A DNA stretch of 64,000 nucleotides from an uncultured Chloroflexia bacterium (GTDB lineage Bacteria > Chloroflexota > Limnocylindria > Limnocylindrales > CSP1-4). The DNA is taken from contig CAVTIO010000003.1 in NCBI GenBank assembly GCA_963734935.1, positions 214,489-278,488 of the forward strand, given 5' to 3'. The notes under the pieces are model-generated. The model made no database searches and was not told where the DNA came from. It saw only the letters and a list, made by a program, of their open reading frames with translations. The position numbers and the translations under genes were made by a program. The stretch's first letter is position 1, and the number at the start of each line of letters is the position of its first letter. Below, in pieces: positions 9,853 through 47,752 of this stretch.

Positions 9853-10536
9853 CTACCGCGCGGTCGCCGGCCCGGACTCGTCCTGTGCCGACGACTTCGC
9901 GCCTGATCCCTTGCCGCCCGCCGCCTCCGCATCGTGCGCCTGCGCGATGAGCGAGTCGCCGGTCAGCGTATACACCGCGTCGATGATGCCATACTCGCGG
10001 GCCTGCTCGGCGCCCATGAAGTAGTCGCGGTCGGTGTCCTTGGTCACCCTATCCAGCGGCTGGCCGGTGTGCTTGGCGAGGATCTCGTGGTTGACCGTGA
10101 CCAGGTGCTCCCATTCCTTCATCTGGATCACGGCGTCGGGTGCGTTGCCGCGGAAGCCACCCGACCCCTGGTGGATCATGACCCGGCCATGGGGCAGCGC
10201 GTACCGCTTGCCCTTGGTGCCGGCGGCCAGCAGCACGGCGGCCATCGAGGCCGCCATACCGATGCAGATCGTGCTCACCGGCGCCCGCAGGTACTGCATG
10301 GTGTCGTAGATCGCGAGCCCACTGGTCACGACGCCGCCGGGCGAGTTGATGTACAGGCTGATGTCCTTCTCCGGGTCTTCGGACTCGAGGAACAGCAGCT
10401 GGGCGATCACCAGGTTGGCCAGGTGATCGTCGATCGCGTCGCCCAGGAAGATGATCCGCTCGCGCAGCAGCCGCGAGTAGATGTCGTAGGCGCGCTCTCC
10501 ACGGCTTGTGGACTCGATGACCATCGGGACGAGCAT
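9853..10536 (-). CDS. clpP: ATP-dependent Clp protease proteolytic subunit ClpP (single copy, with a Gly/Ala/Ser-rich C-terminal tail)
   Basis: [32 protein letters not shown] matches the ClpP N-terminus. Catalytic Ser in the GMAASMAA context. Start at 10536 is preferred because of a GGGGAG RBS. The alternative start is 10590. Confidence 0.9.
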
Positions 10537-10586
10537 GGTGGGTCTCCCCTGTGTCAGGTCGGGCGTCGATGAGTTGGACGCCGACA

Positions 10587-30689: not shown

Positions 30690-31036
30690 ACTGCGCGACG
30701 GCCGAGCAGGTCGCTCGTCTGTCCACTACCGGAGGCGAACTCCAGATGGTGCACATGAACCTCGTCAGCCCGCGCACGGCGGCGCCCATCCTCGGCGCTG
30801 TCGACGGGAGAGGTGTGCCCACCAGCAGGTAGGACGCGGGGCCAGGGGCCCCAAGAGCGACCACCGAGCCGTGGGCCACCGGGCCCGCGGCTCAACTGTT
30901 TTCTGGGCACGTCGCTGCCCACCTGACACGAGCCGCAGGTCTCCCGACAACCGGGGCCCGCGGCTCGTTCCATGCCTGGGACATCTGCGGACCCGACGAG
31001 CCACGTGAAGCCAGTCCGTCCACGCAGGAGAGTCCC

Positions 31037-31987: not shown

Positions 31988-32025
31988 TCCAACCACAGCC
32001 AAACAGCAAACGAACGGAGAGTGAC

Positions 32026-32238
32026 ATGTACCAGGGACAACACTGGCTCGATGAACACAACGCGCGCCACGCTCGTGACGAGCGATCGCGCATCCACCTG
32101 CATCGCCAGGCCATCCGGGAGGCGCAGCAGGCGCGGCGGGCCTCGAGCCCCCTGCGTCGGCGCCTGGGCGGGTCGATCGTTCGACTCGGCCACCGCGTTG
32201 CCGGCGAGCAGCTCGGCTCCCCCGTCCTGACCGGCTGA
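32026..32238 (+). CDS. small basic hypothetical protein (70 aa) between the ABC ATPase and permease genes
   Basis: GGAGAG RBS 5 nt before ATG (MYQGQHWLDEHNARH...). GC3-biased. Start chosen as the internal M of the track ORF. Confidence 0.35.
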   Translation: MYQGQHWLDEHNARHARDERSRIHLHRQAIREAQQARRASSPLRRRLGGSIVRLGHRVAGEQLGSPVLTG

Positions 32239-32281
32239 GCCGGTCGGGGCGGGGGCCCACCAAACGCGAAAGGAACCAACG

Positions 32282-33085
32282 TTGGCTCTGCTGACGCACG
32301 AGCTGAAGGCGTCGTACGCCTTCGTCGAGCGCAACTTCTTTCTGACCCGCCGGTACTGGGGTTGGGAGGTTGCGTTCCTCGTCTACTCCGTCGCCGGTGC
32401 ACTGTCGATCTCGCTCATCGGCGCGGCGTCGGGCGACGACCGCCTGCTCCTGACCCTGATCATCGGCGCCATCTTCTGGAACTACCTCTCGGTGGTCTTC
32501 TCGTGGATCGCGGAGACGATCTCGGTCGAACGCTGGGAGGGCACGCTCGAATACACGTTCATGGCGCCGGTCCGGCGCTGGACCCAGCTGCTGGGCTCGT
32601 GTCTGTATGCGATGGGCTACGGCCTCGTGCACACCGCCGCGATCCTGGTCGTGCTGATCCTGTTCTTTCCGCAGCTCAACCCGGGATCGATGAACATGGC
32701 CACCGCGGCGATCTTCGTCCTCCTCGGCTCGTTCAGCGTGGTCGGCATCGGGATGATGGCCGCCATCCTGCCGCTGCTCTACGTGGAGCGCGGGGCGCAG
32801 ATGACGTTCGTCCTCCAGTCGGTCCTGCTGCTCGTGTCGGGTGTCTACTACCCGATCGCGGTGCTGCCGGAATGGATGCAGGTGCTCTCGCGCCTGTCGC
32901 CGGCCACATATGTGCTGAACGGCGTCCGGGCCGGCCTGCTCGACGGCACGCCCGTTACCGCGCTCCTGTACGACGTGGTGCCATTGATCGTGATGGGGAT
33001 CGTCCTCATCCCGGCCGGTCTGTGGGCATTCGGACGTGCCGAGCGCTACGCGAAGCGAACCGGCAAGCTGAAGCGGGTGGGCTGA
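32282..33085 (+). CDS. ABC-2 type transporter permease
   Basis: Six TM helices. ABC2_membrane-like architecture. Follows the DrrA-like ATPase. Confidence 0.8.
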   Translation: MALLTHELKASYAFVERNFFLTRRYWGWEVAFLVYSVAGALSISLIGAASGDDRLLLTLIIGAIFWNYLSVVFSWIAETISVERWEGTLEYTFMAPVRRWTQLLGSCLYAMGYGLVHTAAILVVLILFFPQLNPGSMNMATAAIFVLLGSFSVVGIGMMAAILPLLYVERGAQMTFVLQSVLLLVSGVYYPIAVLPEWMQVLSRLSPATYVLNGVRAGLLDGTPVTALLYDVVPLIVMGIVLIPAGLWAFGRAERYAKRTGKLKRVG

Positions 33086-33086
33086 G

Positions 33087-34226
33087 ATGGACCGGCACCA
33101 GACTGTCAATGGCGCCGAGGGCGCCACGCCCGCGCTCGTCGAGCTGGGCTGGGACCCGGGGTGGGCATCCGCCTTCCGACCGCACGGCGGGACGGGATGG
33201 GCGCCGGCCCGGGTCCTGGCCGCACACCGCGACGCGTGGGTTGTCGCCGGTCCCGACGGGGATCGAGACGCGGTGATCTCCGGACGTCTGCGCCACGAGG
33301 CGCTCGGACCCGCCGACCTGCCGGCCGTCGGCGACTGGGTCGCGGCCGCCGGGACGCGGACCACGGGCACGTGCGTGATCCACGCCGTCCTCCCTCGCCG
33401 GACCGTGTTCCGGCGCGGCACGGCCGACGACGACGCGGCTCCGTCGATCGCCGCCGAGCAGGTGCTCGCGGCCAACGTGGACACGGCCCTGGTCGTCACC
33501 GGTCTCGACGGCGACTTCAACCTGCGCCGTCTCGAGCGATACCTCGCGGTCGCCTGGAGCGGCGGCGTGACCCCCGTGATCGTGCTCAACAAGACCGACC
33601 TGGACGTCGATGTCAACGCGTTCCAGGTGGCGGCGGAGGCCGTCGCCCCAGGGGTCGAGATCCGCCCGCTGTCCGCGCTCGCCGGGACCGGGGTCGCGAG
33701 CCTCGCCGTCGACCATCTCACGCCCGGCAGCACGGCCGTCGTGCTCGGCTCGTCCGGCGTCGGCAAGTCAACATTGGTCAACGCCCTGGTCGGCCAGGTC
33801 CGGCAGCGCACCGCCGCCGTGCGCGAGGACGACGCCCGCGGGCGCCATACCACGACCCACCGCGAGCTGATCCGACTGCCGGATGGCGGGCTCCTGATCG
33901 ACACACCCGGGATCCGATCGCTCGGCGTGGCCGGTGCCGCGGACGGCATCGGCTCAGCGTTCGCGGACATCGAGGCCCTCGCCGAGGGGTGCCGGTTCCG
34001 GGACTGTCGCCACGAGACCGAGCCCGGCTGCGCCGTGCGTGCCGCGCTGGCCGACGGACGGCTGGACGAGGATCGGTTCGCAAGCCATCGCAAGCTGGAG
34101 AAGGAGGCGGCGTATGTCGCCCGCGCGTCCGACCCGGTGCTCCAGGCCGCCGAGCGCCGGCGCTGGCGGGCAATCAGCGCCTCGGTCGCCGTGCACATGC
34201 GGCACAAGTACGGAGATGAACGATGA
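33087..34226 (+). CDS. rsgA: ribosome small subunit-dependent GTPase A (RsgA/YjeQ)
   Basis: Circularly permuted GTPase: G4 VLNKTDL precedes G1 GSSGVGKSTLVNAL, with DTPGIRS. C-terminal zinc motif CRFRDCRHETEPGC. Confidence 0.9.
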   Translation: MDRHQTVNGAEGATPALVELGWDPGWASAFRPHGGTGWAPARVLAAHRDAWVVAGPDGDRDAVISGRLRHEALGPADLPAVGDWVAAAGTRTTGTCVIHAVLPRRTVFRRGTADDDAAPSIAAEQVLAANVDTALVVTGLDGDFNLRRLERYLAVAWSGGVTPVIVLNKTDLDVDVNAFQVAAEAVAPGVEIRPLSALAGTGVASLAVDHLTPGSTAVVLGSSGVGKSTLVNALVGQVRQRTAAVREDDARGRHTTTHRELIRLPDGGLLIDTPGIRSLGVAGAADGIGSAFADIEALAEGCRFRDCRHETEPGCAVRAALADGRLDEDRFASHRKLEKEAAYVARASDPVLQAAERRRWRAISASVAVHMRHKYGDER

Positions 34227-35326
34227 GAGAACAGTCGATCGCCGGGCATTCGATGATCCCGGGCCTCACGCTGCGGGCTGGCGACCCGGCCGACTGGGAC
34301 GCCCTCGCCGAGCTCGAGAACCGCGCCCATGCCGCCGACGGTGTCGAGGAGCGCCAAACGGGTGCTGAGCTGGCGGCCGAGCTGCAGCGGCTGGACGAGT
34401 TCCGCCCTGAGCGCGACGTGCTGGTCGGGGAGGTGGACGGCACCATCGCTGGCTTTGCCGCCGGCTACCGCGTCACCAGGGACGGCGTGCTGACCGGCGA
34501 GCTGTGGGGGGTCATCGACCCACAGTTCCGTCGTCGTGGGATCGGGACGGCCATGTTCGAAGCCAACCGGGATCGGCTCACCGTCGAGCTGGCCGAGGAT
34601 CCTCGGCCGGGCCCCCGCGTGCTCCACTCGTGGGCGCTGGACGCCGAGACCTCGGCTCGTGCGCTGCTGGCAGACCGCGGCTTCGTGCCGATCCGCTTCG
34701 GCTTCGAGATGCGGCGGTTCCTGACGGGCACCCTCCCGGTCCGCGCCCTCCCGGAGGGCATCGAGATGAGGCCCGTGACCCCGGACCAGCATCGGGCGAT
34801 CTTCGAGGCCGACGAGGAGGCGTTCGCGGACCACTGGGGCCACCGGCCCGCAGGCGAGGGCGACTTCGTGACCATGTTCAACGGCCCGAACGTCGATACC
34901 TCGCTGTGGTGCGTCGCGTGGGACGGAGACCAGGTCGCCGGGAGCGTGATGAACGCCGTGTTCGAACGCGAGAACGCCGAGCTGGGGATCCGCCGCGGCT
35001 GGCTGGAGCACGTCTCGGTCCGGCGCCCATGGCGCGGACGCGGGGTGGCCAAGGCCCTGTGTGCGGCCTCGTTTCGGGTGCTCCGCGAACGCGGCATCGA
35101 CGAGGCGTGGCTGGGCGTCGATGGCTCGAACCCGACGGGGGCGCTGGCCCTCTACGAGGGGCTCGGGTTCCACGTTGCCCGCCGCTGGCAGGCCTATGGG
35201 CGCCCCGTGGACGGCCCGGCACCGGCGGGCTGGCGCTCGCCAGGCGAGGCTCGAGGCGAGGTGGCCCCGGGAGCAGATGCGGAGGCGGCGGACACGGCGA
35301 GCGCGGGGGCTGGATCGGGCGGCTGA
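34223..35326 (+). CDS. tandem-GNAT acetyltransferase (two acetyltransferase domains, MshD-like architecture)
   Basis: Two GNAT cores (QFRRRGIGTAMF and RPWRGRGVAKALC). ATGA overlap with the rsgA stop. The MshD-like assignment rests on architecture only. Confidence 0.7.
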   Translation: MREQSIAGHSMIPGLTLRAGDPADWDALAELENRAHAADGVEERQTGAELAAELQRLDEFRPERDVLVGEVDGTIAGFAAGYRVTRDGVLTGELWGVIDPQFRRRGIGTAMFEANRDRLTVELAEDPRPGPRVLHSWALDAETSARALLADRGFVPIRFGFEMRRFLTGTLPVRALPEGIEMRPVTPDQHRAIFEADEEAFADHWGHRPAGEGDFVTMFNGPNVDTSLWCVAWDGDQVAGSVMNAVFERENAELGIRRGWLEHVSVRRPWRGRGVAKALCAASFRVLRERGIDEAWLGVDGSNPTGALALYEGLGFHVARRWQAYGRPVDGPAPAGWRSPGEARGEVAPGADAEAADTASAGAGSGG

Positions 35327-36120: not shown

Positions 36121-36759
36121 TCAGAGCAGCAGCCGCCGCTCGCGCGTGACAAGCTCCATCCAGGCTCGTTCCCGGGCGATGGTCGTGGCCGGACCGTGAC
36201 CGGGCATGACCCGGACCTGGTCCTCGAGCTCGGTGAGGCGTGCGATCGACGCGACCATGTCGTCGGCCGAGCCACCGGGCAGGTCGACCCGGCCCCAGCC
36301 GCCGCTGAACAGGGTGTCTCCGCTGAACAGGATCCCCTCGTCGGCGGCGACCAGGCAGACCGACCCCTCGGTGTGTCCGGGCGTGTGCATCACCCGCAGC
36401 CGCAGGTCGTCGAACCGGATCTCGCCACCCTCGGCAAGCTCGATCGCCGGCACAGACGGGACGATCGCGAACGGCGCGAACTGGGCGGTCGGCGCGAGCA
36501 GGCGATGCCGATCCGCCGGGTGAACGGCGATCTCGGCGCCCGTGTGCGCCGCCACCGCAGCGTTGTCGCCGATGTGATCCCAGTGACCATGCGTGGTGAC
36601 GATGAGCTTGAGGGTCCAGTCGCGTTCCTCGAGCGACGCCCGGACCCAGGCCAGCGACGGCGTCGCAGTGTCGATCGCGATCGCCTCCCGGGTGCGGGGG
36701 TCGGCGAGCACGTAGACGTTGGTCGCGACCGGGCCGACGACCGCGTGCAGGTACTCCAC
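36121..36759 (-). CDS. MBL-fold metallo-hydrolase (glyoxalase II-like)
   Basis: TTHGHWDHIGD and HTPGHTEGS metal-binding motifs. Start set to the GTG (VEYLHAVVGPVATNVYVL) at about 36759. The track ORF's 108-aa upstream extension overlaps a better small gene on the other strand. Confidence 0.75.
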   Translation of the reverse strand: MEYLHAVVGPVATNVYVLADPRTREAIAIDTATPSLAWVRASLEERDWTLKLIVTTHGHWDHIGDNAAVAAHTGAEIAVHPADRHRLLAPTAQFAPFAIVPSVPAIELAEGGEIRFDDLRLRVMHTPGHTEGSVCLVAADEGILFSGDTLFSGGWGRVDLPGGSADDMVASIARLTELEDQVRVMPGHGPATTIARERAWMELVTRERRLLL

Positions 36760-36861
36760 AGGCTCAGTCTCGCACGGGTTGGGCGGTCCATCGAGATCCG
36801 GCCATCCGGCTCTCGGCGCGAGGCGAGCGACCGGCGCACAATGCGGCTGGAGGTGATCGGC

Positions 36862-37107
36862 ATGACCACACCGCGAATCCAGGCCAAGATCACCCCTTGG
36901 GACGACCCGGCCTTCGTCCGCGCGTTCGAGCAGGCCCGCGATGAGATCGAGCAGTCCGGCTGCTGCCCGGAAGGGCCCGAGGCCGCCTCCGAGGTCCAGC
37001 ACCGGCTCCGCCAGGGGGGCTATCCGAGCGCGAGCGTCGAGGTGATCCGGACGGCCCGGGAGGCGCTCGCGCACACCTCCCACTGGATCGTGACCCGGGA
37101 CGCCTGA
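36862..37107 (+). CDS. small hypothetical protein (81 aa) with CCPEGPE motif
   Basis: Strong GGAGGTGA RBS 5 nt upstream of ATG. GC3-biased codons. In the track it is hidden inside the 3' end of the artefactual 453-aa ORF 35746..37107. Stop is 4 nt from the coxG stop (convergent). Confidence 0.45.
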   Translation: MTTPRIQAKITPWDDPAFVRAFEQARDEIEQSGCCPEGPEAASEVQHRLRQGGYPSASVEVIRTAREALAHTSHWIVTRDA

Positions 37108-37110: not shown

Positions 37111-37554
37111 TCAGCCGGCCTCGAGCTTGGCGCGGATGCAGTCGAACGTCTGACCGATCATCTTGTTCGCGGTGCCCTCGACCATCCGTGCGCCGACCGA
37201 GGCCAGCGTCCCGGAGATCGTGACGTCGGCGGACCAGTCCATCGTGGTCGGGCCCGCCTCGGCGCCCGAGAGGCGCATGTCCGCCGTCGCGTCGACCGCT
37301 GATCCGGGCGCCTGTCCGTGGGCCTTGAGCACCGCGAGCTCGGGCTCGGTACGCTCCGCCACGGTCATGTCGACCACGAACCGCGCCGAGATGAAGCCGA
37401 CGCCCACCTTCGCCTTGGCCTTGAAGTGATCGGCGTCGATCACCTCGATCGACTCCACGCCGGGCCCGCACGACCCGACCTGGTTGGGGTCCATCAGGAA
37501 GGCCCACACGCGGTCGCGTGGTGCGTTGATGTCGACGCTGCCCTTGAACTGCAT
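37111..37554 (-). CDS. coxG: CoxG-like SRPBCC protein (carbon monoxide dehydrogenase subunit G family)
   Basis: MQFKGSVDINAPRDRVWAFLMDPNQV... matches the CoxG/SRPBCC fold family. Start moved to 37554 with a GGAGA RBS. The track's 72-aa Arg-rich extension is rejected. Confidence 0.75.
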   Translation of the reverse strand: MQFKGSVDINAPRDRVWAFLMDPNQVGSCGPGVESIEVIDADHFKAKAKVGVGFISARFVVDMTVAERTEPELAVLKAHGQAPGSAVDATADMRLSGAEAGPTTMDWSADVTISGTLASVGARMVEGTANKMIGQTFDCIRAKLEAG

Positions 37555-37622
37555 ACCCTTGGATCTCCGTGCTGGTGGGTGGTGCCGGTGGCGACGCGGT
37601 GCCCGCCGCGCCGGGACCGCCC

Positions 37623-38666
37623 TCAGGCGTCGGCGGTGGCGGACCCAGTGACGTACGCGCCCGGCTCCTTGATGAACGCCGTTCGGCAGCCCATCGAGCA
37701 GAAGGCGTAGACGGTCCCCTCGTGCTCGGCGAGGTGCCGGGCATGCGCGCGGTCGACCGTCATCCCGCACACGGGGTCGAGAAGCACGATGTCGTCCACG
37801 ATCGGTGCCTGCTCCGGGCCCGGCTGTCCGGTCGCCTCACCGGCGACGGTTGCCGGGCCGGGTCGGGCGACGAACGCCGCGCGACCGCGCCGCACCTGGA
37901 CGAGCTCTCCCAGGATCGAGATCGCGATCTCCTCGGGTGTCTCCGCGCCGAGGTCGAGCCCGCACGGCGCCCGAAGCGCGGCCAGGCGATCCTCGGGGAT
38001 GCCCGCCTCATCGCGCAGCCATTCGCGCACGACGCGAGCTCGGGTCGGTGAGGCCACGAGGCCCACGTATGCGACGTCGCGTCGGAGCGCGGCCGCCAGG
38101 GCCTCCTCGTCCCAGACGCCCTGCGTCGCGACGACGACATGGGGCGAGAGCTCGGGGTCCACGCGCCCCAGCGCCGTGTCGCTCGACACCCGCTCGGCAT
38201 CGGGGAAGGCATCGGCGTCCGCGATCGGGTCGAACACGGATACCCGCCAGCCGGTCGCCGTGCCCAGCGCGGCCAGCGCGCCCACGATGGGTGTCGTGCC
38301 TGCGAGCCAGAGTGACGGCATCGGAAGGTGCGGTTCCACGTAGATCTCCAGGGTGCCCCCCGAGTGACAGGTCATGACCAGCTCGACGACGCCGTCGGCC
38401 CGGCGGCCCTCGGCCGGGCCGTCCTTCGACAGCCGGAGCAGCCGGGGATGACCGTCGACCAGCGCCCGCAGCGCCTCGCGGACGACCACCGGCTGGGCGC
38501 AGCTGCCGCCGACCCAGCCCTCGATCGTGCCGTCCGGATGGACGATGCCAGCCGACCCGGGACGGGCCGACGTCGGCCGCTGCACCGCGACGACCGTCGC
38601 GACCGCGAACGTCGAGCCCGTCGCCTCGAGCTCTGCGACCCGGCGGAAGACCGATCGTCCGGGCAC
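37623..38666 (-). CDS. XdhC/CoxI-family molybdoenzyme maturation factor fused to a C-terminal YHS (TRASH-superfamily) metal-binding domain
   Basis: XdhC_CoxI N-terminal domain (FAVATVVAVQ...GSAGIVHPDGTIEGWVGGSC) and XdhC_C Rossmann-like domain. C-terminal YHS motif DPVCGMTV...GTVYAFCSMGCRTAF (C-x22-C-x3-C) as found in Cu-ATPase N-termini. Confidence 0.8.
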   Translation of the reverse strand: MPGRSVFRRVAELEATGSTFAVATVVAVQRPTSARPGSAGIVHPDGTIEGWVGGSCAQPVVVREALRALVDGHPRLLRLSKDGPAEGRRADGVVELVMTCHSGGTLEIYVEPHLPMPSLWLAGTTPIVGALAALGTATGWRVSVFDPIADADAFPDAERVSSDTALGRVDPELSPHVVVATQGVWDEEALAAALRRDVAYVGLVASPTRARVVREWLRDEAGIPEDRLAALRAPCGLDLGAETPEEIAISILGELVQVRRGRAAFVARPGPATVAGEATGQPGPEQAPIVDDIVLLDPVCGMTVDRAHARHLAEHEGTVYAFCSMGCRTAFIKEPGAYVTGSATADA

Positions 38667-38669: not shown

Positions 38670-41042
38670 TCAGGCCACGCCCTTCTCGTGCAGCACCTGC
38701 CACACCTTCTGGGGCGTGAACGGGATGTCGAGGTGGGTGACGCCGAGCGGCGACAGCGCGTCCACGACGGCGTTCGCGATGGCGGGCGGGGCACCCACGG
38801 TCGCGGACTCCCCCACTCCCTTGGCACCCAGCGGATGGTGCGGCGACGGGGTGATGGTCTTGGCCGTCTCCCAGGGGGGCGTCTCGACGGCGGTCGGCAG
38901 CAGATAGTCCATGAACGTGCCGGCGAGGTTGTTGCCGTTCTCGTCGTACGGGATCTCCTCCAGCAGCGACGGAGCGAATCCCATCGTCAGCCCGCCGTGG
39001 ATCTGCCCGTCGACGATCATGGGGTTGATGATGTTGCCGCAGTCATCGACCGCCACGAAGCGCCGGACGGTGACCTGCCCTGTGCCCTTGTCGATGTCGA
39101 CCACCGCCACGTAGCTCCCGAACGGGAAGGTGAGGTTCGGCGGATCGTAGTAGTCGACCGCCTCGAGCCCGGCCTCCATGCCCTCCGGGTGGTTGGTGTA
39201 GGCGGCGAACGCGAGCTCCGCGATCGTCTTGACCCGATCAGGCGAGCCTTTGACGCTCCACTGTCCGGGCGACCACTCGAGGTCGTCGGGCGAGCACTCG
39301 AGGAGGTGCGCGGCGAGGAGACGCGTCTTCTCGCGGATCTTGCGCGCGGCCACCGCGGTCGCAGCACCGGCGGTCGGGGTGGACCGCGAGGCATACGTGC
39401 CGAGGCCGTACGGTGCGGTGTCCGTGTCGCCCTCCTCGACCTTGACCTTGGACGCGGGGATGCCCAGCTCCTCGGCCACGATCTGGGCGAACGTCGTCTC
39501 GTGACCCTGCCCCTGGCTCTGGACGCCGAGGCGCACGATGGCCGAGCCCGTGGGATGGACCCGGATCTCGGCCGAGTCGAACATCTTGATGCCGATGATG
39601 TCGAACGTGTGCGAGGGACCGGCGCCGACGATCTCGGTGAAGCTGCTGATGCCGATGCCCATCAGCTCGCCCTTCGCGCGCTTCTCCACCTGCTCCTTGC
39701 GCAGGTCGTCGTAGCCGATCAGGTCGAGCGCCTTGCGCAGTGCCGTGTGGTAGTCGCCCGAGTCGTAGTCCCACCCGGTCGGGGTGTGGTACGGGAACTG
39801 GTCCTTCCGGATGAAGTTCTTCATGCGGAACTCGGCCGGGTCCATGCCCAGCTCGCCGGCCGCCTTGTCGACCAGCCGCTCGATCGTGTGGACGGCCTCG
39901 GTGACCCGGAAGCTGCAGCGGTACGCGACGCCACCCGGCGGCTTGTTGGTGTACGCGGCATCGACCTCGACGAACGCCTCCGGCACCTGGTAGCTGCCGG
40001 TGATGACGTTGAACAGGCCGGCCGGGAACTTCGACGGATCCGCGGCCGCATCGCTGTAGCCGTGGTCGGCTAGGGTCTTGACCCGCAGGCCGGTGATCGC
40101 GCCGTCGTTGCTCACGCCCAGCTCGGCGTGGATGTGGTAGTCGCGGGCAAACGAGTCGGCCTGGAGATTCTCGGACCGGTCCTCGATCCACTTCACCGGC
40201 CGGCCCAGCGTGAGCGACGCGACGATCGCGCACACGTACCCCGGGTAGACCGGCACCTTGCCGCCGAACCCGCCGCCGATGTCGTGCGTCTTGACGCGGA
40301 TGTCCGACTCGGGCACGCCCGACACGAGGCTGATCACCGTTCGATAGACGTGGGGCGCCTGGCTCGTGACGTGGAAGTCGAGGTGGCCGCGGACGGGGTC
40401 GAAGTCGGCGATGCAGCCGCAGGTCTCGATCGAGGCGACGTGGATCCGGGGGATGTACACATCGATCGGAACGACCCGATCGGAGCCGGCCAGCGCGGCG
40501 TCGGTCGCCGGCTTGTCGCCCGACTCCCAGTGCCAGATGTGATTGGTCTGCTTGTCCTCGCCGCGATCCGGACGCAGGATCGGCGCGTCCGGCTCGAGCG
40601 CCTTGAACGGGTCGACGACCACCGGCAGCGGTTCGTAGTCGACGTAGACCGCCTGGATCGCGTCGGCCGCCTGGTAGCGGGTCTCAGCGATGACCGCGGC
40701 GACCTCCTGGCTCTGATACATGACCGTGTCGACCGGCAGCACCATCTGCTTGTCGCCGGCCAGGGTGGGCATCCAGTGGAGGCCTGCCTTCTCGAGATCC
40801 TTGCCGGTGATGACCGCCAGCACGCCCGGCATCGCGAGCGCCTCGCTGGCGTCGATCGACTTGATCTTCGCGTGTGCGTACGGGCTGCGCACGATGTCCA
40901 TCCAGACCATGTTGGGCAGGACGACATCCTCGATGTACTCGCCCTGGCCGCGGATGAAGCGGGGATCCTCCTTGCGCTTCATCGAATGGCCCATGCCGCA
41001 GACCTCGGCGGTCGTGGTCGGTGCCTGTGCCTCCGTCATCAC
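38670..41042 (-). CDS. coxL: form I aerobic carbon monoxide dehydrogenase large (molybdopterin) subunit
   Basis: Form I-specific active-site loop VAYRCSFR (in KPPGGVAYRCSFRVTEAVH). N-terminal KRKEDPRFIRGQGEYIED. Aldehyde oxidase/xanthine dehydrogenase a/b hammerhead plus MoCo-binding domains. Confidence 0.9.
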   Translation of the reverse strand: MMTEAQAPTTTAEVCGMGHSMKRKEDPRFIRGQGEYIEDVVLPNMVWMDIVRSPYAHAKIKSIDASEALAMPGVLAVITGKDLEKAGLHWMPTLAGDKQMVLPVDTVMYQSQEVAAVIAETRYQAADAIQAVYVDYEPLPVVVDPFKALEPDAPILRPDRGEDKQTNHIWHWESGDKPATDAALAGSDRVVPIDVYIPRIHVASIETCGCIADFDPVRGHLDFHVTSQAPHVYRTVISLVSGVPESDIRVKTHDIGGGFGGKVPVYPGYVCAIVASLTLGRPVKWIEDRSENLQADSFARDYHIHAELGVSNDGAITGLRVKTLADHGYSDAAADPSKFPAGLFNVITGSYQVPEAFVEVDAAYTNKPPGGVAYRCSFRVTEAVHTIERLVDKAAGELGMDPAEFRMKNFIRKDQFPYHTPTGWDYDSGDYHTALRKALDLIGYDDLRKEQVEKRAKGELMGIGISSFTEIVGAGPSHTFDIIGIKMFDSAEIRVHPTGSAIVRLGVQSQGQGHETTFAQIVAEELGIPASKVKVEEGDTDTAPYGLGTYASRSTPTAGAATAVAARKIREKTRLLAAHLLECSPDDLEWSPGQWSVKGSPDRVKTIAELAFAAYTNHPEGMEAGLEAVDYYDPPNLTFPFGSYVAVVDIDKGTGQVTVRRFVAVDDCGNIINPMIVDGQIHGGLTMGFAPSLLEEIPYDENGNNLAGTFMDYLLPTAVETPPWETAKTITPSPHHPLGAKGVGESATVGAPPAIANAVVDALSPLGVTHLDIPFTPQKVWQVLHEKGVA

Positions 41043-41059: not shown

Positions 41060-41575
41060 TCAGGCCGACGCCGCGGCGGCTTCGGACTCGGATTCAGCGG
41101 GCGCGGACCGGAGCTCGGCCGCGGCCTGCTGGACCGCCTTGACGATGTTCACGTAGCCGGTGCACCGGCACAGGTTGCCGGCGATGCCCTCGCGGATCTC
41201 CAGCTCGCTGGGATCCGGGTTCTGGCCCAGCAGCCAGCTGGTCTGCATGATCATCCCCGGCGTGCAGAAGCCGCACTGGAGGCCGTGCTGGTCGGAGAAC
41301 GCCTGCTGGAGCGGGTGGAGCGCTCCGCCCTGCTCCATGCCCTCGATGGTCGTGATCGAGGCTCCGTTCGCCTGGACGGCGAGCATGGTGCATGACTTGG
41401 CGCTGTTGCCGTTGACGAGCACCGTGCACGCGCCGCAGTTGCTCGTGTCGCAGCCGGTGTGGGTGCCGGTCAGGCCGAACACGTCGCGCAACAGGTGGGT
41501 AAGCAGGAGGCGGGGCTCGACGTCGGCCTCGCGGTCCTGGCCGTTGACGGTGACCGAGATGTGCTGGGTGGTCAT
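41060..41575 (-). CDS. coxS: CO dehydrogenase small subunit, [2Fe-2S] ferredoxin-like
   Basis: Plant-type cluster [11 protein letters not shown] and second cluster CGFCTPG...CRCTGY. Confidence 0.9.
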
Positions 41576-41589: not shown

Positions 41590-42462
41590 CTATGCGCCCT
41601 GGGCCCGAGCCGCGGCCTGTCGCAGCGCCCGGATCGTGATCTCGCGGACCATCGCCCGCTTGTACTCGGCCGGCCCGTGACTGTCCGAGGCCGGACTCGA
41701 CTGCGCGGCTGCCGCCGAGCCCGCGGCGGCGAAGGCCTCCTCCGAGGGCGCCGAGCCGACCAGGCCCTCTTCCGCGTCGCTGGCGGCGAACGGGGCCTCG
41801 CTGACCGCCGTGAGCCCGATGCCGGCCGCCTCGACACGACCGTCCGCCCCGAGCGTCAATACCGCGGCGGCACCCACCGTCGCGAAATCGCCCGCCCGAC
41901 GCTCGAGCTTGACGTAGGCGCTGCCGGTCCGGGCCGGAGCCGCGGGCAACCGGACCTCGGTCAGCACCTCGGTGGGCTCGATCTCGGTCATGAACGTGCC
42001 GGTGAAGAAGCCGCGCGCCGGGAGTGTCCGCTCGCCGCCGCTGCTGCGGCAGATGAAGCTGCCGCGCAGGGCCTGGATCACCGCCGGCCAGTCCGAGCTC
42101 GGGTCAGCGTGCGCGCACGACCCGCCGATGGTGCCCCAGTTGCGGACCTGGGGATCGCCGATCCCCCCGGCCGTGTCGCGCATGATCGGCCACTGGGCAG
42201 CGAGGCCGTCGTGCTCCTGGATGTGGTGATGGGTCACGCGACCCCCGATGTGCCAGCCGTCGGCGGCCTGCGTGATGGCGCCGAGGCCGGTGACCGCCTG
42301 AAGGTCGACAAGGAGCGCCGGCTGCGCCAGTCGAAGCTTGAGCAGCGGCAGCAGGCTGTAGCCGCCGGACAGGACCTTCGCCTCCCCTTCCCGCTCCTGC
42401 AGGATCCGGAGGGCCTCGTCAAGCGATGCTGGCCTGACATAGTCGAACTGACCGGGAATCAT
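41590..42462 (-). CDS. coxM: CO dehydrogenase medium subunit, FAD-binding (PCMH fold)
   Basis: [18 protein letters not shown]...[19 protein letters not shown], a CoxM/XdhB-type FAD domain. Start moved to 42462. Confidence 0.85.
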
Positions 42463-42760
42463 GCGCTGCCTGCCCTCCTTCCCACGCCAGGGGACGCGGG
42501 ACCGATGTCGGGCCCGTCTTCGAGGGGACGGGCTCGGGGATGCCATGACAGTCGGTCGGCGGTCGTCGCCTCGGGCCGGCGAACGCCGCGTGGGCGGAGC
42601 CCACGGAAAGCTGCTTCTCCGAGTATCCGCGCGTGCCGACGAGGCGTCAATCAGGTGACGCCCGCGGTGCGGGAACGTTGCGGACGGTGAGCCTCACGCC
42701 CTGCGCAGCCGAAGACGCCGGGCTGCGGCCGACTGATCGTCCGGGCGTGCCAGGGGTGGG

Positions 42761-43630
42761 TCAGGCGCCGGGCGGGCTCCAGGTCACGATCCCCAGCGAC
42801 CCCGCCGATGGCATCGCGAGCGTCCAGGCACCGTCCCGCGACTCGGCGAGGTCGGGCAGGCGACGGAGCAGCTCGCGGTCCTTCTCGCCGCCCTCCGCGA
42901 TGAACAGCTGCCGGCGCAGGAACGCCGCCAGCGCGGTCATGGACTCGAACGAGCGGGCCGGGCGCTCCACCCGGATGACCTCGGTGTCTCGGCCACGCGC
43001 ACGCAACAGCGCAAGGAGCTCCACGAGCGCCGGCAGCGGAACCCGTTCCTCGCCGTGGATCAGCGGCCACAGGGGATCGACCAGCGACGCCGGGCTCCGG
43101 TCGGTGAGCACCGCGATGCAGTGCTCGCGCGCGGCGGCCTCCATGGCATCGAGGAACGGGCCGATGGGCTCGATGTCGTAGGCGACATGGGCGATCAGGG
43201 CGACGTCCGCCGCCGGCAGCGTGTCGAGCTGGGCGAGCGCGTCCGGCCAGGTCCCGGCCACCATCCGGATGTTGTCGATGCCGTGCTCGCTGATGCCCGA
43301 CTTGAGCGCCTGGCGCATGCCGGGCGACGGCTCGACGGCGATCACCTCGCGAATGGCAAGCGCCAGAGGGAGCGCATAGCGGCCGGCCCCGGCGCCGATG
43401 TCCAGCCAGACGTGGTCCGGGCGCGCCGTGGCCCGAAGGACGTCGAGCGCGGGCTCGTCGGTGCGCCTGGGATCGGACACGAACTGCGCCGTCACCGGGG
43501 CGTAGAAGTCAGCCAGCTGCGACTCGCGCAGGCGCTCGGCCTGCTCGCGGTTGGCCAGCACGCGCTCGGTCCACTCGGCTTCGAGCGGGTCGACGAGGGC
43601 GGTGGTCTCGGCTTCGGGCATGGGCCTCAC
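42761..43630 (-). CDS. class I SAM-dependent methyltransferase
   Basis: Motif I VWLDIGAGAGRYALPLA. Located between the two CODH gene sets. Overlaps the mocA stop by 4 nt. Confidence 0.7.
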   Translation of the reverse strand: MRPMPEAETTALVDPLEAEWTERVLANREQAERLRESQLADFYAPVTAQFVSDPRRTDEPALDVLRATARPDHVWLDIGAGAGRYALPLALAIREVIAVEPSPGMRQALKSGISEHGIDNIRMVAGTWPDALAQLDTLPAADVALIAHVAYDIEPIGPFLDAMEAAAREHCIAVLTDRSPASLVDPLWPLIHGEERVPLPALVELLALLRARGRDTEVIRVERPARSFESMTALAAFLRRQLFIAEGGEKDRELLRRLPDLAESRDGAWTLAMPSAGSLGIVTWSPPGA

Positions 43631-44217
43631 GATACGCCCGACAGCCGTTCCAGGTCGTCACGGGTATCGATGTCGGGGTTCGAGCCCGCGACCGCGACCT
43701 CCGCCACCAGGTCGGAGCGGGCGACGAGCAGCGCGCCGAGGCCACGGTCACCCACCAGGCCGGCCGCCAGCGCCCAGCCCGAGCGCTTGACGAGGACGGG
43801 ATTGGGGGCGTCGTCGTTCGCGTATCGGGCGCGCAGGAGCGGTTGCTCGGTGGTCACCGCCGCATCGATCACCGCGCGCACCACGTCGGGACGCAGCGTC
43901 GGCTGGTCGCCGAGCACGATCAGGGCCGCGTCGGCGGCGGGGTCCTCGGCTGCCGCGTCGAGACCCACGCGCAGCGAGCTCGAGAGCCCGTCCTGCGGTC
44001 GCGGGTTGACGGTCCGCCGTTCCGCTCGCCAGCGGATCGCCCTCTCCACCGTGTCGGCATCGGTGCCGAGCACGACGGCGACATCGGCCAGGCCGGCGAC
44101 GGCGAGCGCATCGAGGACGTGCTGGAGGACCGGCCGCCCGCGCAGCGGGGCGAGCAGCTTCTGGGACCCGAAGCGACTGGACGCTCCTGCGGCGAGGACG
44201 ACCGCGACGACGTTCAC
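43627..44217 (-). CDS. mocA: MobA-like nucleotidyltransferase, probable molybdenum cofactor cytidylyltransferase (MocA)
   Basis: MNVVAVVLAAGASSRFGSQKLLAPLRGRPVL matches the MobA/MocA N-terminus. Required for the MCD cofactor of CODH-family enzymes. Confidence 0.75.
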   Translation of the reverse strand: MNVVAVVLAAGASSRFGSQKLLAPLRGRPVLQHVLDALAVAGLADVAVVLGTDADTVERAIRWRAERRTVNPRPQDGLSSSLRVGLDAAAEDPAADAALIVLGDQPTLRPDVVRAVIDAAVTTEQPLLRARYANDDAPNPVLVKRSGWALAAGLVGDRGLGALLVARSDLVAEVAVAGSNPDIDTRDDLERLSGVS

Positions 44218-45362
44218 CCGGGGGCTGCGTCCGGGCCGCGCGCGAGGGCGCGCCCGTCCCGGGCACGTGCGAGGTCGCGCATCGGCTGCCCGGTTCCGGC
44301 ACGCCGCTCGGCGACGATCTCGGCCATGATCGCGAGCGCCGTCTCGGCCGGCAGGCGGCCGCCGAGGTCGAGACCGATCGGCCCCCGCAGTCGGTCCAGC
44401 TGCGCCTCGTCCACGCCCACGTCCTTGAGCCGCGCCCGTCGATCGGCCTGCGTCTTGCGCGACCCGACAGCTCCCACGTACCGACAGCCGCGGCGCAGGG
44501 CCTCGACGATCGCCGGCTCATCGAACTTCACGTCATGGGTCAGGACCGCCACGGCGTCGGCCGGCCCGAGTCCGATCTCGTCGGCGACCTCGTCGGGCCA
44601 GCCCACGATCAGCCGGTCAACGTCCGGGAACCGCGCCTCGGTCGCGAACGCCGCCCGGCCATCCACGACCACCGTCTCGTAGCCCAGCTCGCGCGCGAGG
44701 TGCACCAGCGATCGCGCCACCTCGACGGCGCCCACGACGACCAGCCGCGGGCGGACCGGGTAGGCCTCGATGAACAGCTGCCGGCCAGCGATCTCGACGG
44801 TCCTCGATACTCCCTTGGCGAGCGCCGCCGTCGCCGCGCCGGACAGCTCCGCGTCGGCAGCCTGATCGCCAAGCGTGCCGTCGACCCGACCGTCATCGTG
44901 GACCACCAACGGTTCGGCGGCCGTCCCACCGCTGCCGGGCTGGTGGGCGCCGAAATCCGGCGGCGGCGAGTCCGGCGGCAGAGGCGTGACGATCGCCCGC
45001 CCGTCGCCGCGGCCCTCGTGCGTCTCGCGGGCGGCGGTGATCGCCACCTCGGGCACCCGGGGCGAGATCAGGACGTCGATCGTGCCCCCGCACGCGAGCC
45101 CGACATCCCATGCCTGCTCGTCGCTGATGCCGTAGCGGATCACTCGCTCACGACCCGATCGTCGGGCCTCCCGGATCTCCTCGGCCGCGGCCCCTTCCAC
45201 GCAGCCACCCGAGACCGAGCCCGCAAGCCTCCCATCGTCGGTCACCAGCAGGACGGCGCCTTCGGGCCGCGGCGCGCTGCCAAAGGTGCGTACGACGACG
45301 GCCCTGCCTATCCCGGCACGCTCGGCACGCCAGGCATCGAGCGAGTCAAGCAGCTCCTGCAT
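44214..45362 (-). CDS. XdhC/CoxI family molybdoenzyme maturation factor (second paralog, no YHS domain)
   Basis: XdhC_CoxI N-domain (RAVVVRTFGSAPRPEGAVLLVTDDGRLAGSVSGGCVEG) plus XdhC_C domain. Confidence 0.8.
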   Translation of the reverse strand: MQELLDSLDAWRAERAGIGRAVVVRTFGSAPRPEGAVLLVTDDGRLAGSVSGGCVEGAAAEEIREARRSGRERVIRYGISDEQAWDVGLACGGTIDVLISPRVPEVAITAARETHEGRGDGRAIVTPLPPDSPPPDFGAHQPGSGGTAAEPLVVHDDGRVDGTLGDQAADAELSGAATAALAKGVSRTVEIAGRQLFIEAYPVRPRLVVVGAVEVARSLVHLARELGYETVVVDGRAAFATEARFPDVDRLIVGWPDEVADEIGLGPADAVAVLTHDVKFDEPAIVEALRRGCRYVGAVGSRKTQADRRARLKDVGVDEAQLDRLRGPIGLDLGGRLPAETALAIMAEIVAERRAGTGQPMRDLARARDGRALARGPDAAPG

Positions 45363-45386: not shown

Positions 45387-46796
45387 TCACGCCAGCGGGC
45401 GGGCGCGCTGTCCGTCCACGGCCTCGGCATCCAGCGGTCGCGGTGCCGTCGCGTCGGGCGCGAACAGCCCCAGCGACGGCGTCACGGCAGTTGCGCGCGT
45501 CACGGCCGTGCCCTTGCGGGCAGTCCCCTGCGAGGCGCCCGCCAGCACCTCGCCGAGTCGCTCGAGCGACGCCAGGGTGCCGGCCGGCAGGAAGTCGTCG
45601 ATGAACGGGTAGGCGGCCTTCATTCCGGCCGCCAGTGGCTGGTAGCCGGGGGTCGAGGCCAGCGGGTTGAGCCATACCAGCCGGTGGCAGTTGCGGCGCA
45701 GCCGGGCCGTCTCGGCCGCAACCAACGCAGGGTCGCCCCGGTCCCAGCCGTCGGACACGACGATCACGACGCCCGAGGTCCGCAGCGTCCGCCGTGCCCA
45801 GCGATGGTTGAACTCGCGGAACGACTCCCCGATCCGGGTACCGCCCGCCCAGTCCGTCACCGTGTCCGCGACCCGCGTCAGCGCCCGGTCCCGGTCCCGG
45901 TCGCGCATCAGCCGCGTGACCCGCGTCAGCCGCGTGCCGAACACGAACGACTCGGTCCTCACCTCGTTGGTCCGGGCCAGCGCCTGCGCGAACCGCAGCA
46001 GGAGGCGCGAATGCCGCTCCATCGACCCCGAGATGTCGCACAGGATGACCAGCTGCCGAGGCTCCCGGATCGGCCGTCGCCAGACCCACTCGGTCAGCTC
46101 GCCGGTTGCGAGGTTGCGTCGGAACATGGCCCTCGGTGCGAGCCGGCGCCCGTGCGGATGGAGCTCCTGGCGACGCGTCCGGCGTCGCTCGAGACGCGGG
46201 CGCAGGAGGTCGACGAACCGCTCCGCATCCCGCAGCTCGGCCGCGGTCATCCGATCGAAGTCGCGATGGCGCATCACCTCGCCGCGCGAGTACGCGTCGG
46301 GCGAGATGGTCGTGCCCTCGACCTCCGCCCCCTCGTCGGCATCGGACGCCAGCTGGACACCCATGGTGGCCAGCTCGGTCATCTCGCCCTCGCCGCCGTC
46401 GCCGCCCTCCTCGCCAGGTCCTGGCTCGCCGTCCTGCTCGCGCTCGGCATCGGGCGCCACCCCCTCCAGACGTGGCCCGGGCAGGGACCGACCCCGCCGT
46501 CGCCAGAAGCGGTCGAACACGCGGTCGTAGACCTCGCGCTCGTCGCGTCGCCGGACGAACACCGCGGCACCTGCGTCCCGAACGAGCTCGCGCCGGCCCA
46601 CGTCGACCAGCGACAGGGCGCGCGCGAAGTCGATCGAGGCGCCGAGGTCGATCGCCAGGCCCGCGGCTCGCAGCGCGCGACCGAAGCCCACGGCCTCGGC
46701 CAGCAACCGGCGCCCGTCCACGAGCTCCCCCGTCGGGGCACGCAGGATCGGGGTCGCGCTGTCGCTCGTCGGCTCGCGGCTGGGGGCGCCCGGCAT
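45387..46796 (-). CDS. coxE: VWA domain-containing CoxE-like protein
   Basis: C-terminal VWA with MIDAS context LVILCDISGSM. CoxE-like architecture. Overlaps the coxD stop. Confidence 0.8.
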   Translation of the reverse strand: MPGAPSREPTSDSATPILRAPTGELVDGRRLLAEAVGFGRALRAAGLAIDLGASIDFARALSLVDVGRRELVRDAGAAVFVRRRDEREVYDRVFDRFWRRRGRSLPGPRLEGVAPDAEREQDGEPGPGEEGGDGGEGEMTELATMGVQLASDADEGAEVEGTTISPDAYSRGEVMRHRDFDRMTAAELRDAERFVDLLRPRLERRRTRRQELHPHGRRLAPRAMFRRNLATGELTEWVWRRPIREPRQLVILCDISGSMERHSRLLLRFAQALARTNEVRTESFVFGTRLTRVTRLMRDRDRDRALTRVADTVTDWAGGTRIGESFREFNHRWARRTLRTSGVVIVVSDGWDRGDPALVAAETARLRRNCHRLVWLNPLASTPGYQPLAAGMKAAYPFIDDFLPAGTLASLERLGEVLAGASQGTARKGTAVTRATAVTPSLGLFAPDATAPRPLDAEAVDGQRARPLA

Positions 46797-46798
46797 GG

Positions 46799-47752
46799 CT
46801 AGGCCTGCGCCGTCGCCTCGGCGAGGTACTGCTTGGCGACGTTGCCGCGCACCTGGCGGATGTCCTCCTCGTACTTGAGCACGACACCCAGCGTCTCATC
46901 GACCATGTCCGGGGCGAGCTCGGTGGCACCCAGCGACAGCAGCGCGGCCGCCCAGTCCAGTGTCTCGGCCACGCCCGGCACCTTGGTCAGATCGGCCTGG
47001 CGCAGCCGGTGGACGAACGACACGACCTCGCGCGCCAGCCGCGGCGGGGCGCCGGGCACGCGGGTAGCCACGATCTCGAACTCCTTGCTCGCGGTCGGGT
47101 AGTCGATCCAGTGGTACAGGCAACGGCGCTTGAGCGCGTCGTGGACCTCACGTGTGCGGTTGGAGGTGAGCACCACCCGCGGCGGCTGATGGGCGGTGAT
47201 GGTGCCGATCTCGGGCACGGTGACCTGGTAGTCCGACAGGATCTCGAGCAGATACGCCTCGAACTCCTCGTCGGCGCGGTCGATCTCGTCGATCAGCAGG
47301 ACCGGCGCGTTGCCGTCGGTCGCTTCGAGCGCCTGGAGCAGCGGCCTTTTCAGCAGGAAGTCAGGCCCGAAGATGTCGTGGGCCGACGCCTGGGCGATCT
47401 CGCCGCGCGCCTCGAGCAGCCGGATCTCGAGCATCTGGCGCGGGTAGTTCCATTCGTAGACGGCGGTGTTGACGTCGAGCCCCTCGTAACACTGGAGCCG
47501 GATCAGGCGGGTATCGAGCGTGGCGGCCAGGACCTTGGCAAGCTCGGTCTTGCCCACCCCCGCCTCGCCCTCGAGCAGCAGCGGGCGGCCGAGCTCGAGC
47601 GAGAGGAACACCGTCGTTGCGAGCGATCGCTCGGCGATGTACCCCTGCTTGCGGAACGCCTCGGTGAGGCCCTCGATCGAACGAGCGGCCTCGGGAGAAG
47701 CGGGCGCCGGGCTGACGGATGAGCTGGCGGAAACGGGCGGATCAGGCTCCAT
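46799..47752 (-). CDS. coxD: MoxR-type AAA+ ATPase (CoxD-like)
   Basis: Walker A GEAGVGKT, Walker B LLIDEIDRA, and sensor motifs of the MoxR family. Start moved to MEPDPPVSA at 47752. The track's 114-aa extension is rejected. Confidence 0.85.
   Translation of the reverse strand: MEPDPPVSASSSVSPAPASPEAARSIEGLTEAFRKQGYIAERSLATTVFLSLELGRPLLLEGEAGVGKTELAKVLAATLDTRLIRLQCYEGLDVNTAVYEWNYPRQMLEIRLLEARGEIAQASAHDIFGPDFLLKRPLLQALEATDGNAPVLLIDEIDRADEEFEAYLLEILSDYQVTVPEIGTITAHQPPRVVLTSNRTREVHDALKRRCLYHWIDYPTASKEFEIVATRVPGAPPRLAREVVSFVHRLRQADLTKVPGVAETLDWAAALLSLGATELAPDMVDETLGVVLKYEEDIRQVRGNVAKQYLAEATAQA

Follow-up and report, generated by a model that had tools for sequence, protein, structure and literature searches.

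A CoxF ortholog ending in a YHS domain beside form I carbon monoxide dehydrogenase: a candidate copper-binding arm

Introduction

Aerobic molybdenum-copper carbon monoxide dehydrogenase (Mo-Cu CODH) performs atmospheric CO oxidation in soils and oceans. Here, we describe a gene at positions 37623-38666 (minus strand) of a 64,000-nucleotide window of contig CAVTIO010000003.1, from an uncultured Chloroflexia bacterium, in which a maturation protein of the XdhC family, CoxF, is fused to a C-terminal YHS domain directly downstream of the large-subunit gene of form I CODH. We weigh the possibility that this domain serves copper insertion. The sole model for the route of copper to the buried Mo-S-Cu centre rests on mutants of Oligotropha carboxidovorans and on weak sequence motifs (PMC4240915). 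In this organism, insertion mutants of coxE and coxF contain CODH that is folded, sulfurated and Cu-free, and CoxF was proposed to be a copper-escorting protein, with a putative Cu site in the segment M107CPSHGTM (Pelzmann et al. 2014, PMC4240915).

The CoxF protein of Oligotropha (Afipia) carboxidovorans OM5, encoded on pHCG3, has the same two-domain XdhC core as the window protein, but ends ∼15 residues after the Rossmann domain, with no YHS, HMA or Cys tail, and has a ‘phytase motif’ (RHGQRQS) that is absent from the window protein. The two loci share the neighbourhood logic of coxMSL, coxD, coxE and coxG, and many YHS-bearing orthologs occupy the D-E-F slot of the O. carboxidovorans cluster; the order in the window differs, in that coxF directly follows coxL, while coxD and coxE lie upstream of coxM. 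The XdhC proteins of Rhodobacter capsulatus and of the structures 2WE7/2WE8 (M. smegmatis) and 3ON5 have the XdhC_CoxI and XdhC_C domains in common with the window protein, but have no metal-binding tail; in 2we7 the N-domain is duplicated, as it is in a second XdhC paralog of the window. XdhC inserts sulfurated molybdenum cofactor (Moco), whereas CoxF acts on cofactor that is already inside the folded enzyme (PMC4240915).

The added domain belongs to the same Pfam family, with the same Asp and three Cys, as the YHS domains of Cu-transporting P1B-ATPases and of the adenylyl cyclase of M. phlei. The M. phlei domain mediates Cu-specific activation of the cyclase, and its Asp and three Cys were proposed as Cu ligands (Linder 2015, PMC4626032). 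That domain has an 8-residue linker and a regulatory role (PMC4626032), whereas the domain in the window is C-terminal on a cofactor-maturation protein, at the end of a long tether that is predicted to be disordered. We found no paper that describes an XdhC/CoxF-YHS fusion in the open-access literature, a scope that does not prove the fusion to be undescribed. The cox cluster of Parageobacillus has been listed in detail without mention of a YHS tail (bioRxiv 10.1101/2023.01.17.524042); separately, this paper on Parageobacillus sp. G301 contains another possible link to copper handling. The CoxF-YHS architecture is already visible, in that database pipelines tag PF04945.

The window protein joins an XdhC core to a YHS domain

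The gene and the parts of its product are as follows; a Pfam hit was counted only above the curated gathering cut-off.

37623..38666, minus strand: coxF ortholog with C-terminal YHS domain; open reading frame (ORF) of 347 amino acids, GTG start, TGA stop
38433..38624, minus strand: XdhC_CoxI N-terminal domain (PF02625), residues 15-78, 62.7 bits (cut-off 24.3)
38355-38375, minus strand: conserved motif MTC(100)xSGG, just upstream of the Rossmann domain, from the alignment
37902..38312, minus strand: XdhC_C Rossmann domain (PF13478), residues 119-255, 103.4 bits (cut-off 29.7)
37794..37874, minus strand: Pro/Gly/Ala low-complexity linker, residues ∼265-291, predicted disordered (AlphaFold2 predicted local distance difference test, pLDDT, <50)
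37647..37778, minus strand: YHS domain (PF04945), residues 297-340, 36.3 bits (cut-off 30.3), E 5.7e-9

The G+C content at third codon positions (GC3) of this ORF, 0.89, is like that of the real genes of the window, in which overall G+C is 70.3%. A first-pass annotation, made from the letters of the window, had proposed the fusion of an XdhC-family factor to a YHS domain, and the proposal holds, since PF02625, PF13478 and PF04945 all exceed their curated cut-offs. The two tail strings quoted at the time, DPVCGMTV and GTVYAFCSMGCRTAF, are both found in the translation, where the tail reads LLDPVCGMTVDRAHARHLAEHEGTVYAFCSMGCRTAFIKEPGAYV. Membership in the XdhC family is indicated by both Pfam domains and by a match to PDB 2we7 (E 1.3e-21), and the family-wide GGxC motif (C56) is found inside the XdhC_CoxI domain.

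The C-terminal segment, as had been anticipated, passes the YHS profile, of which it covers positions 3-45 of 47, and its layout is D297-P-V-C300-G-M302 ... F322-C323-S-M-G-C327. Conservation was read from 61 diverse fusions, aligned with each other and sharing 34-73% identity with the window protein. In all 61, D297, C300, M302, F322, C323 and C327 are invariant, and because of this invariance we do not consider the YHS match a matter of chance; P298, V304, G317, F331 and P335 are nearly invariant, as is C56 of the core. The ligand set proposed by Linder 2015 (PMC4626032) is therefore present, as D297, C300, C323 and C327, in every one of these orthologs. At position 324 the window protein has Ser, whereas 36 of the 61 fusions have a fourth Cys there. 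The strict form of the related TRASH motif is reportedly C-X2-C-X19-22-C-X3-C; the window tail does not conform to it, having C300-G-M302 instead of the CxxC pair, and the TRASH-related Pfam model gave no match to the window protein.

The fusion is a CoxF ortholog

By sequence comparison, the window fusion is a CoxF ortholog, beyond a generic XdhC paralog, since it is closer to O. carboxidovorans CoxF (40.6% identity, E 3e-45, over CoxF residues 3-266) than to CoxI of the same organism (24.7% identity, E 4e-12; both by BLASTP). In a tblastn search of plasmids, the pHCG3 gene under the best match is likewise coxF, an XdhC-family gene that follows MoxR and VWA genes, and the form I cluster of the window holds coxMSL, coxD and coxE. 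The second paralog of the window (44214-45362) matches CoxI over its full length (28.5% identity, E 3e-27, BLASTP), whereas it has only partial matches to CoxF (best 36.9%, E 2e-17). The earlier statement that the XdhC paralog nearer the form II genes lacks the YHS domain was borne out, as Pfam finds none in 44214-45362. This paralog is CoxI-like; the two enzyme operons flank the stretch that it shares with coxD, coxE and mocA, and there is no sign of form II specificity.

The M107CPSHGTM segment of O. carboxidovorans CoxF aligns with M98-T-C100-H-S-G-G of the window protein, but the M-T-C-x-S-G segment is not specific to CoxF, since it is conserved throughout the XdhC family, 2we7 included. 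The idea of a Cu module on this protein extends the published model, because CoxF was already tied genetically to Cu insertion in O. carboxidovorans.

The fusion gene is linked to form I coxL

The gene directly upstream of the fusion encodes the large subunit of form I CODH.

38670..41042, minus strand: form I CoxL, 790 amino acids, with three Mo-hydroxylase large-subunit domains (Pfam)

This protein is 58.6% identical to CoxL of O. carboxidovorans and 73.8% identical to CoxL of T. roseum. It is assigned to form I by the active-site loop AYXCSFR with the Cu-ligand Cys: VAYRCSFR occupies residues 372-379, with AYRCSFR at nucleotides 39906-39926. Only 3 nucleotides separate the CoxL stop codon from the start of coxF-YHS, in agreement with the first-pass placement of the fusion directly downstream of form I coxL.

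To see if this linkage extends to other genomes, we took up the annotation's suggestion of a co-occurrence survey and scanned one genome per GTDB species with a 16-sequence subset of the alignment. At least 576 matches were confirmed, and the 80 best of them, with up to 10 kb of flank, were read by six-frame motif search and by tblastn with the cox proteins of the window. These 80 loci are not a random sample and are enriched for an intact YHS domain, because DPVCGMTV was one of the two search patterns. A large subunit with the loop [A/S]YxCSFR lies within 61 of the 80 loci, and in another 7 a CoxL fragment nearer to form I than to form II is found beside the fusion at the contig edge. No CoxL was seen in 11 loci whose flank is shorter than 8 kb to the left, the right or both; coxD, coxE, coxG or coxM is present in several of these. 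The one remaining locus is taken up in the Discussion. In this sample the fusion nearly always neighbours a form I CoxL, contrary to the outcome that the annotation had named as refuting.

The loci come from Chloroflexota (including Thermogemmatispora carboxidivorans PM5), Acidobacteriota, Actinomycetota (including Nocardioides mangrovi), Myxococcota, Gammaproteobacteria (Saccharospirillum impatiens), Dormibacterota, Methylomirabilota, Trueperaceae, Longimicrobiales and a Thermoplasmata archaeon. Among the gene orders, those that recur are MSL-F, MSL-D-E-F (the O. carboxidovorans order), F-D-E-MSL and F-MSL, and in Acidobacteriota, Gammaproteobacteria, Burkholderiales and others the fusion occupies the CoxF slot of coxMSL-(G)-D-E-F. 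Synteny of the fusion with form I coxL is found across many bacterial phyla and two archaeal lineages.

Similar results are obtained from plasmids. Of the 263 plasmid records that tblastn matched to the XdhC family, no more than 6 cover the tail, and all 6 have it beside a form-I-type CoxL. The carriers are Thermomicrobium roseum, Deinococcus sp. AJ005, Paraburkholderia aromaticivorans, Caballeronia SBC1 and SBC2, and Natronorubrum bangense. In P. aromaticivorans the order is coxMSL-G-D-E-F(YHS)-mocA-x-coxI; the Caballeronia SBC2 match is identical to that of SBC1, in which the CoxL motif AYRCSFM was read.

Variation in the active-site loop was also noted. The Cu-ligand Cys is kept both in AYRCSFM (L211 ∼3821-6187, Caballeronia sp. 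SBC1) and in SYRCSFR (L055 ∼5750). Five Actinomycetota loci (L050, L059, L060, L071, L072) have a second coxMSL set, divergent or tandem, with AYSCSFR or AYACSFR, and in these coxF-YHS follows only the AYRCSFR set; in L077 the sole coxMSL set carries AYACSFR.

CoxF with a YHS tail is the majority form in environmental form I clusters

The linkage was also examined in reverse. AYRCSFRVT(E), written as a degenerate DNA pattern, was looked for in contigs from metagenomes, which yielded at least 120 loci. An ORF was called CoxF-like if it scored higher against CoxF than against CoxI references. Such an ORF is present in 59 of the reverse loci listed, with 10 cut at the 3' end and 49 complete. Among the complete ORFs, 33 have a YHS tail, 4 have a short CC-pair tail (L118, L091, L122, L150), one has a degenerate YHS (L090), one is likely a fragment (L099), and 10 have no tail.

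The tail-less proteins are related to each other. Seven of the 10 score 284-342 bits against the CoxF references, O. carboxidovorans CoxF among them, far above the other tail-less ORFs and most of the YHS-bearing ones. In a rough neighbour-joining tree of the core domains, which has no support values and was used for the one coarse statement that tail-less forms cluster together, all tail-less forms fall into one clade with O. carboxidovorans CoxF; the clade adjoins the CC-tail group, and YHS forms fill the rest. The named tail-less CoxF proteins on plasmids are all alphaproteobacterial (Afipia, Bradyrhizobium, Rhizobium, Shinella and roseobacters). From the YHS majority, the single tail-less clade and the alphaproteobacterial plasmid cases, it follows that O. 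carboxidovorans represents the minority state, which suggests that it is atypical for the copper-insertion step. Far from being a local oddity, the YHS fusion is what most CoxF genes of environmental form I clusters encode.

Indeed, the window gene is an ordinary member of a large, unremarked CoxF-YHS subfamily. A word-indexed search returned 4792 homologs of the window protein; the best 120 of these are all ≥77% identical to it, 118 of the 120 have a precomputed PF04945 assignment, and the few named sources among them are Chloroflexota or ‘Candidatus Limnocylindrales’ metagenome-assembled genomes (MAGs). An exhaustive search of representatives of 50%-identity clusters gave 509 proteins at E ≤1e-30. 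The best 150 of these span 33-89% identity, although those above ∼55% are mostly fragments, and by regular expression 112 of the 150 have the C-terminal CxM...CxxxC tail; a few further representatives have tails that lack the Met and still pass the Pfam YHS profile.

The tail is exchanged for other thiol-rich modules

Some proteins of the CoxF group have a different metal module at the position of the YHS domain. P0169, which is 49% identical to the window protein over the core, has an HMA domain in place of YHS, with the motif GMSCAHC and 40.9 Pfam bits. It is located at L083 10001-11038, in a complete genome record (AP019797.1), in the order coxM-S-L(GGVAYRCSFR)-G-D-E-[F-HMA]-mocA, and its tail is an independent swap of the metal module. 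Two other proteins, P0235 and P0265, have the Cys-rich tail CC...CCGG and directly follow a coxE homolog; they are encoded on contigs of 1.2-1.5 kb that show coxE directly upstream and do not show coxL. That a single ortholog group has, at one and the same position, three thiol-rich modules unrelated to each other argues that selection has been for soft-metal binding and not for a particular fold.

Other tail variants were observed. Short Cys-rich tails (CC...CCGG, ...CCHG or ...CCH) are present on the CoxF-like proteins P0235, P0245, P0247, P0257 and P0265, and in L118, L091, L122 and L150. In one CoxF subgroup (L097, L113, L114, L143, L157, L179 and others) the YHS tails end in ...K(K/R)ETRC, the terminal Cys of which may be an extra ligand, and the YHS tails of L155 and L185 end in ...QEASC and ...QEAKC. 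Finally, P0135, P0166 and P0181 (533-565 amino acids) are triple fusions of a MobA/MocA-like nucleotidyltransferase, XdhC and YHS, while in P0264 XdhC is followed by MocA, without YHS.

Predicted structure of the fusion and relatives of the tail

AlphaFold2, run on the 61-sequence alignment, gave a model with a mean pLDDT of 87.4, with a confidently predicted XdhC core and values of 83-93 for the YHS domain. Model residues 264-290 (∼27 residues; the model numbering is one lower) have pLDDT <50 and are flanked by confident domains on either side. Two domains joined by a disordered linker would be the geometry expected of a swinging arm. A domain-only model of the tail (pLDDT 83.7) consists of two beta-hairpins followed by helices.

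In PDB sequence and profile searches, the tail has a single significant match, to a YHS-like segment in the phenol hydroxylase PHN (E 3e-7), with weak matches to toluene monooxygenases and to eL24. The PHN subdomain (2INP/2INN) is 35% identical to the tail in the Foldseek alignment, but the match covers only the second half of the YHS domain (FCxxGC...F...P..Y), and this part of PHN is integral to a large catalytic subunit. A Foldseek search with the 58-residue YHS model returned no match better than E 0.3, a result that agrees with a YHS/TRASH fold and is not significant, and the resemblance to the eL24 fold is weak. No Cu-bound YHS structure was found in PDB sequence, profile and Foldseek searches with the tail.

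Discussion

We consider it reasonably probable that CoxF uses the YHS domain as a tethered arm, which would bind Cu(I) and serve the insertion of copper into form I CODH; the invariant Asp, three Cys and one Met of the domain are the most likely Cu(I) ligands. The Cu-module interpretation that accompanied the first description of the fusion gains support from the YHS profile match and the form I linkage, while Cu binding and Cu transfer themselves are predicted. The metal would be copper because the enzyme needs Cu, the Met is invariant, HMA can replace YHS, and M. phlei's YHS domain responds specifically to Cu. In addition, a metal-domain tail is present on most CoxF proteins outside the tail-less clade, and in some lineages it has the canonical Cu(I)-chaperone fold. 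The recurrence of metal-module tails therefore provides independent support, of the Rosetta-stone type, for CoxF as a copper-handling step.

We can envisage the following sequence of events. CoxD would sulfurate the Mo centre of folded apo-CODH, and CoxL would then be the docking site of the CoxF core, perhaps with CoxE taking part. The YHS arm, on its tether, would take up Cu(I) from a cytoplasmic pool or from a chaperone, and would hand it, directly or via C56/C100 of the core, to Mo-SH and the Cys of AYRCSFR; by an alternative route, the arm would deliver Cu(I) directly into the CoxL funnel. Transfer of Cu(I) would complete the CuSMoO2 site.

A broader proposal, which we hold tentatively and with somewhat less than even confidence, is that CoxF ancestrally had, and in most cases still has, a C-terminal soft-metal arm (YHS, HMA or CC) from which Cu(I) passes immediately to the Mo-S-Cu site, in which case the tail-less CoxF of O. 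carboxidovorans would be derived and would need an external donor. If this is true, co-expression of a YHS-type CoxF could solve the long-standing lack of Cu-replete heterologous Mo-Cu CODH. A small soluble domain with five named residues makes the question of copper insertion experimentally approachable, and the fusion is carried by the cultured organisms Thermomicrobium roseum, Thermogemmatispora carboxidivorans, Paraburkholderia aromaticivorans, Natronorubrum bangense and Nocardioides mangrovi.

Several points weigh against a copper-donating tail. Copper as the metal of the tail and the tail as donor are both predictions, here as for every CoxF-YHS. The solved homologs of the tail are only the C-terminal subdomain of phenol/toluene monooxygenase hydroxylases and eL24, and the phenol hydroxylase site is said to bind structural Zn. 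Some tails lack part of the ligand set: P0208, which lies in coxL(AYRCSFR)-G-D-E-F-I, has a YHS without the Met, as do other tails of its type; the first Cys and the Met are missing from the tails of Deinococcus sp. AJ005 p380k (L209 8986-10047) and of P0258 (SPVDGEEI...YYFTCANC); and in that of L090 (VDPTSGSEV...YYFSCHGC) only one of the three Cys is left, and the Met is gone. The degenerate-tail genes of Deinococcus sp. AJ005 and L090 are near form I CoxL. Moreover, a CoxF without a tail suffices for the maturation of active CODH in O. carboxidovorans and its clade, and the tail is therefore not universally required. The forward survey covers only the best 80 of at least 576 matches, and one of the 80 loci (L046) has 10 kb of sequence on both sides and no CoxL. 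At this locus (9851-10963, Acidimicrobiaceae MAG) a genuine XdhC-YHS has no cox gene within 10 kb, and its neighbours are genes for an amidohydrolase, a binding protein, DUF202 and a glycosyltransferase.

Two other functions for the tail are unlikely in our estimation, but need to be weighed against donation of copper. First, the tail might be a copper sensor, in which Cu on the YHS domain switches the CoxF core on or licenses docking to CoxE/CoxL, with the copper of the enzyme coming from elsewhere. The only functional study of a YHS domain that we found, with Cu-specific allosteric activation of adenylyl cyclase (PMC4626032), favours a sensor, and the tail is dispensable in the O. carboxidovorans clade. 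However, orthologs swap the tail for HMA, a carrier-type fold, or for simple CC tails that are unlikely to transmit allostery, and a tether of 27 residues that is predicted to be disordered would be a poor conveyor of conformational signals.

Second, the tail might be a structural Zn ribbon, a module for docking or dimerisation (e.g. to CoxL, CoxE or CoxG) without copper chemistry, which we likewise regard as improbable. The closest solved relatives, an integral subdomain of a monooxygenase hydroxylase and ribosomal eL24, favour such a role, as does the persistence in Deinococcus and P0258 of degenerate tails short of the full ligand set. It is harder to reconcile with the invariant Met by the first Cys, which is a soft-ligand signature and atypical for a Zn ribbon, or with the HMA and CC swaps, which retain thiol chemistry but not the fold. 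The plasmid records (6 of 263, with 6 of 6 at form I) also indicate that the tail goes specifically with form I, the Cu-dependent enzyme, and is no general feature of XdhC proteins.

The Cys-rich tail could instead relay sulfur as persulfide and so be the source of the sulfide that bridges the Mo-S-Cu site. In Moco sulfuration, XdhC proteins act together with cysteine desulfurases, according to a review as cited in PMC4240915, and the tail has three conserved Cys, but we think this very improbable: it is CoxD on which sulfuration depends in O. carboxidovorans, whose coxF mutants still accumulate Mo-SH and Mo-SSH but no Cu (PMC4240915), and HMA is not a persulfide carrier. The view that the protein is a generic Moco chaperone with a YHS tail unrelated to CODH, its adjacency to coxL being incidental, draws on the orphan locus L046, where the fusion lies among unrelated genes, and is close to refuted by the reverse survey and by a synteny with form I coxL that is shared by many phyla of bacteria and by two lineages of archaea.

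Neighbouring genes in the window

The other genes around coxF-YHS that bear on CODH or its conserved neighbourhood are as follows.

36121-37083, minus strand: metallo-beta-lactamase-fold gene, directly downstream of coxG
37111..37560, minus strand: coxG (SRPBCC), PF06240 COXG, 118 bits; 62 nucleotides downstream of coxF-YHS
41060..41575, minus strand: form I CoxS (2Fe-2S subunit), Fer2_2 and Fer2
41590..42546, minus strand: form I CoxM (FAD subunit), FAD_binding_5 and CO_deh_flav_C
42761-43630, minus strand: S-adenosylmethionine (SAM)-methyltransferase gene, between mocA and coxM
43627..44217, minus strand: MobA-like nucleotidyltransferase (MocA-type), PF12804, 103.6 bits
44214..45362, minus strand: second XdhC paralog, CoxI-like, without YHS (Pfam and BLASTP)
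45387..46796, minus strand: coxE (VWA), PF05762 VWA_CoxE, 195 bits; 34% identity to O. carboxidovorans CoxE
46799..47752, minus strand: coxD (MoxR-type AAA+ ATPase), AAA_5 and AAA_3; start placed at MEPDPP by inference
47875-48942, minus strand: gene with MoCF_biosynth (molybdopterin-binding) domain, between form II coxM and coxD
49822-52245, minus strand: form II large subunit with AYRGAGR, the form II motif

The coxD product is 55-57% identical to those of the MoxR genes in the cox clusters of Deinococcus and Caballeronia. The form II genes are arranged in the order S-L-M, upstream of the MoCF_biosynth gene and coxD and on the same strand. A minus-strand ORF of 1682 amino acids at 30125-35173 was rejected as almost certainly an artefact of high G+C, as it is antisense to four plus-strand genes with Pfam matches, which include an ABC transporter, an RsgA GTPase and a GNAT protein.

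Some of the accompanying genes recur in relatives. The methyltransferase slot between mocA and coxM is kept in the Limnocylindria-like relatives L001, L005, L006, L008, L009 and L011, while in Ktedonobacteria (L027, L033) the same methyltransferase comes after coxG; we know of no role in CODH for this gene. The metallo-beta-lactamase-fold gene after coxG is kept in the close relatives L001, L002, L004, L006, L007, L009-L011 and L039, and homologs of the MoCF_biosynth gene are also present in the cox clusters of L014 and L043.

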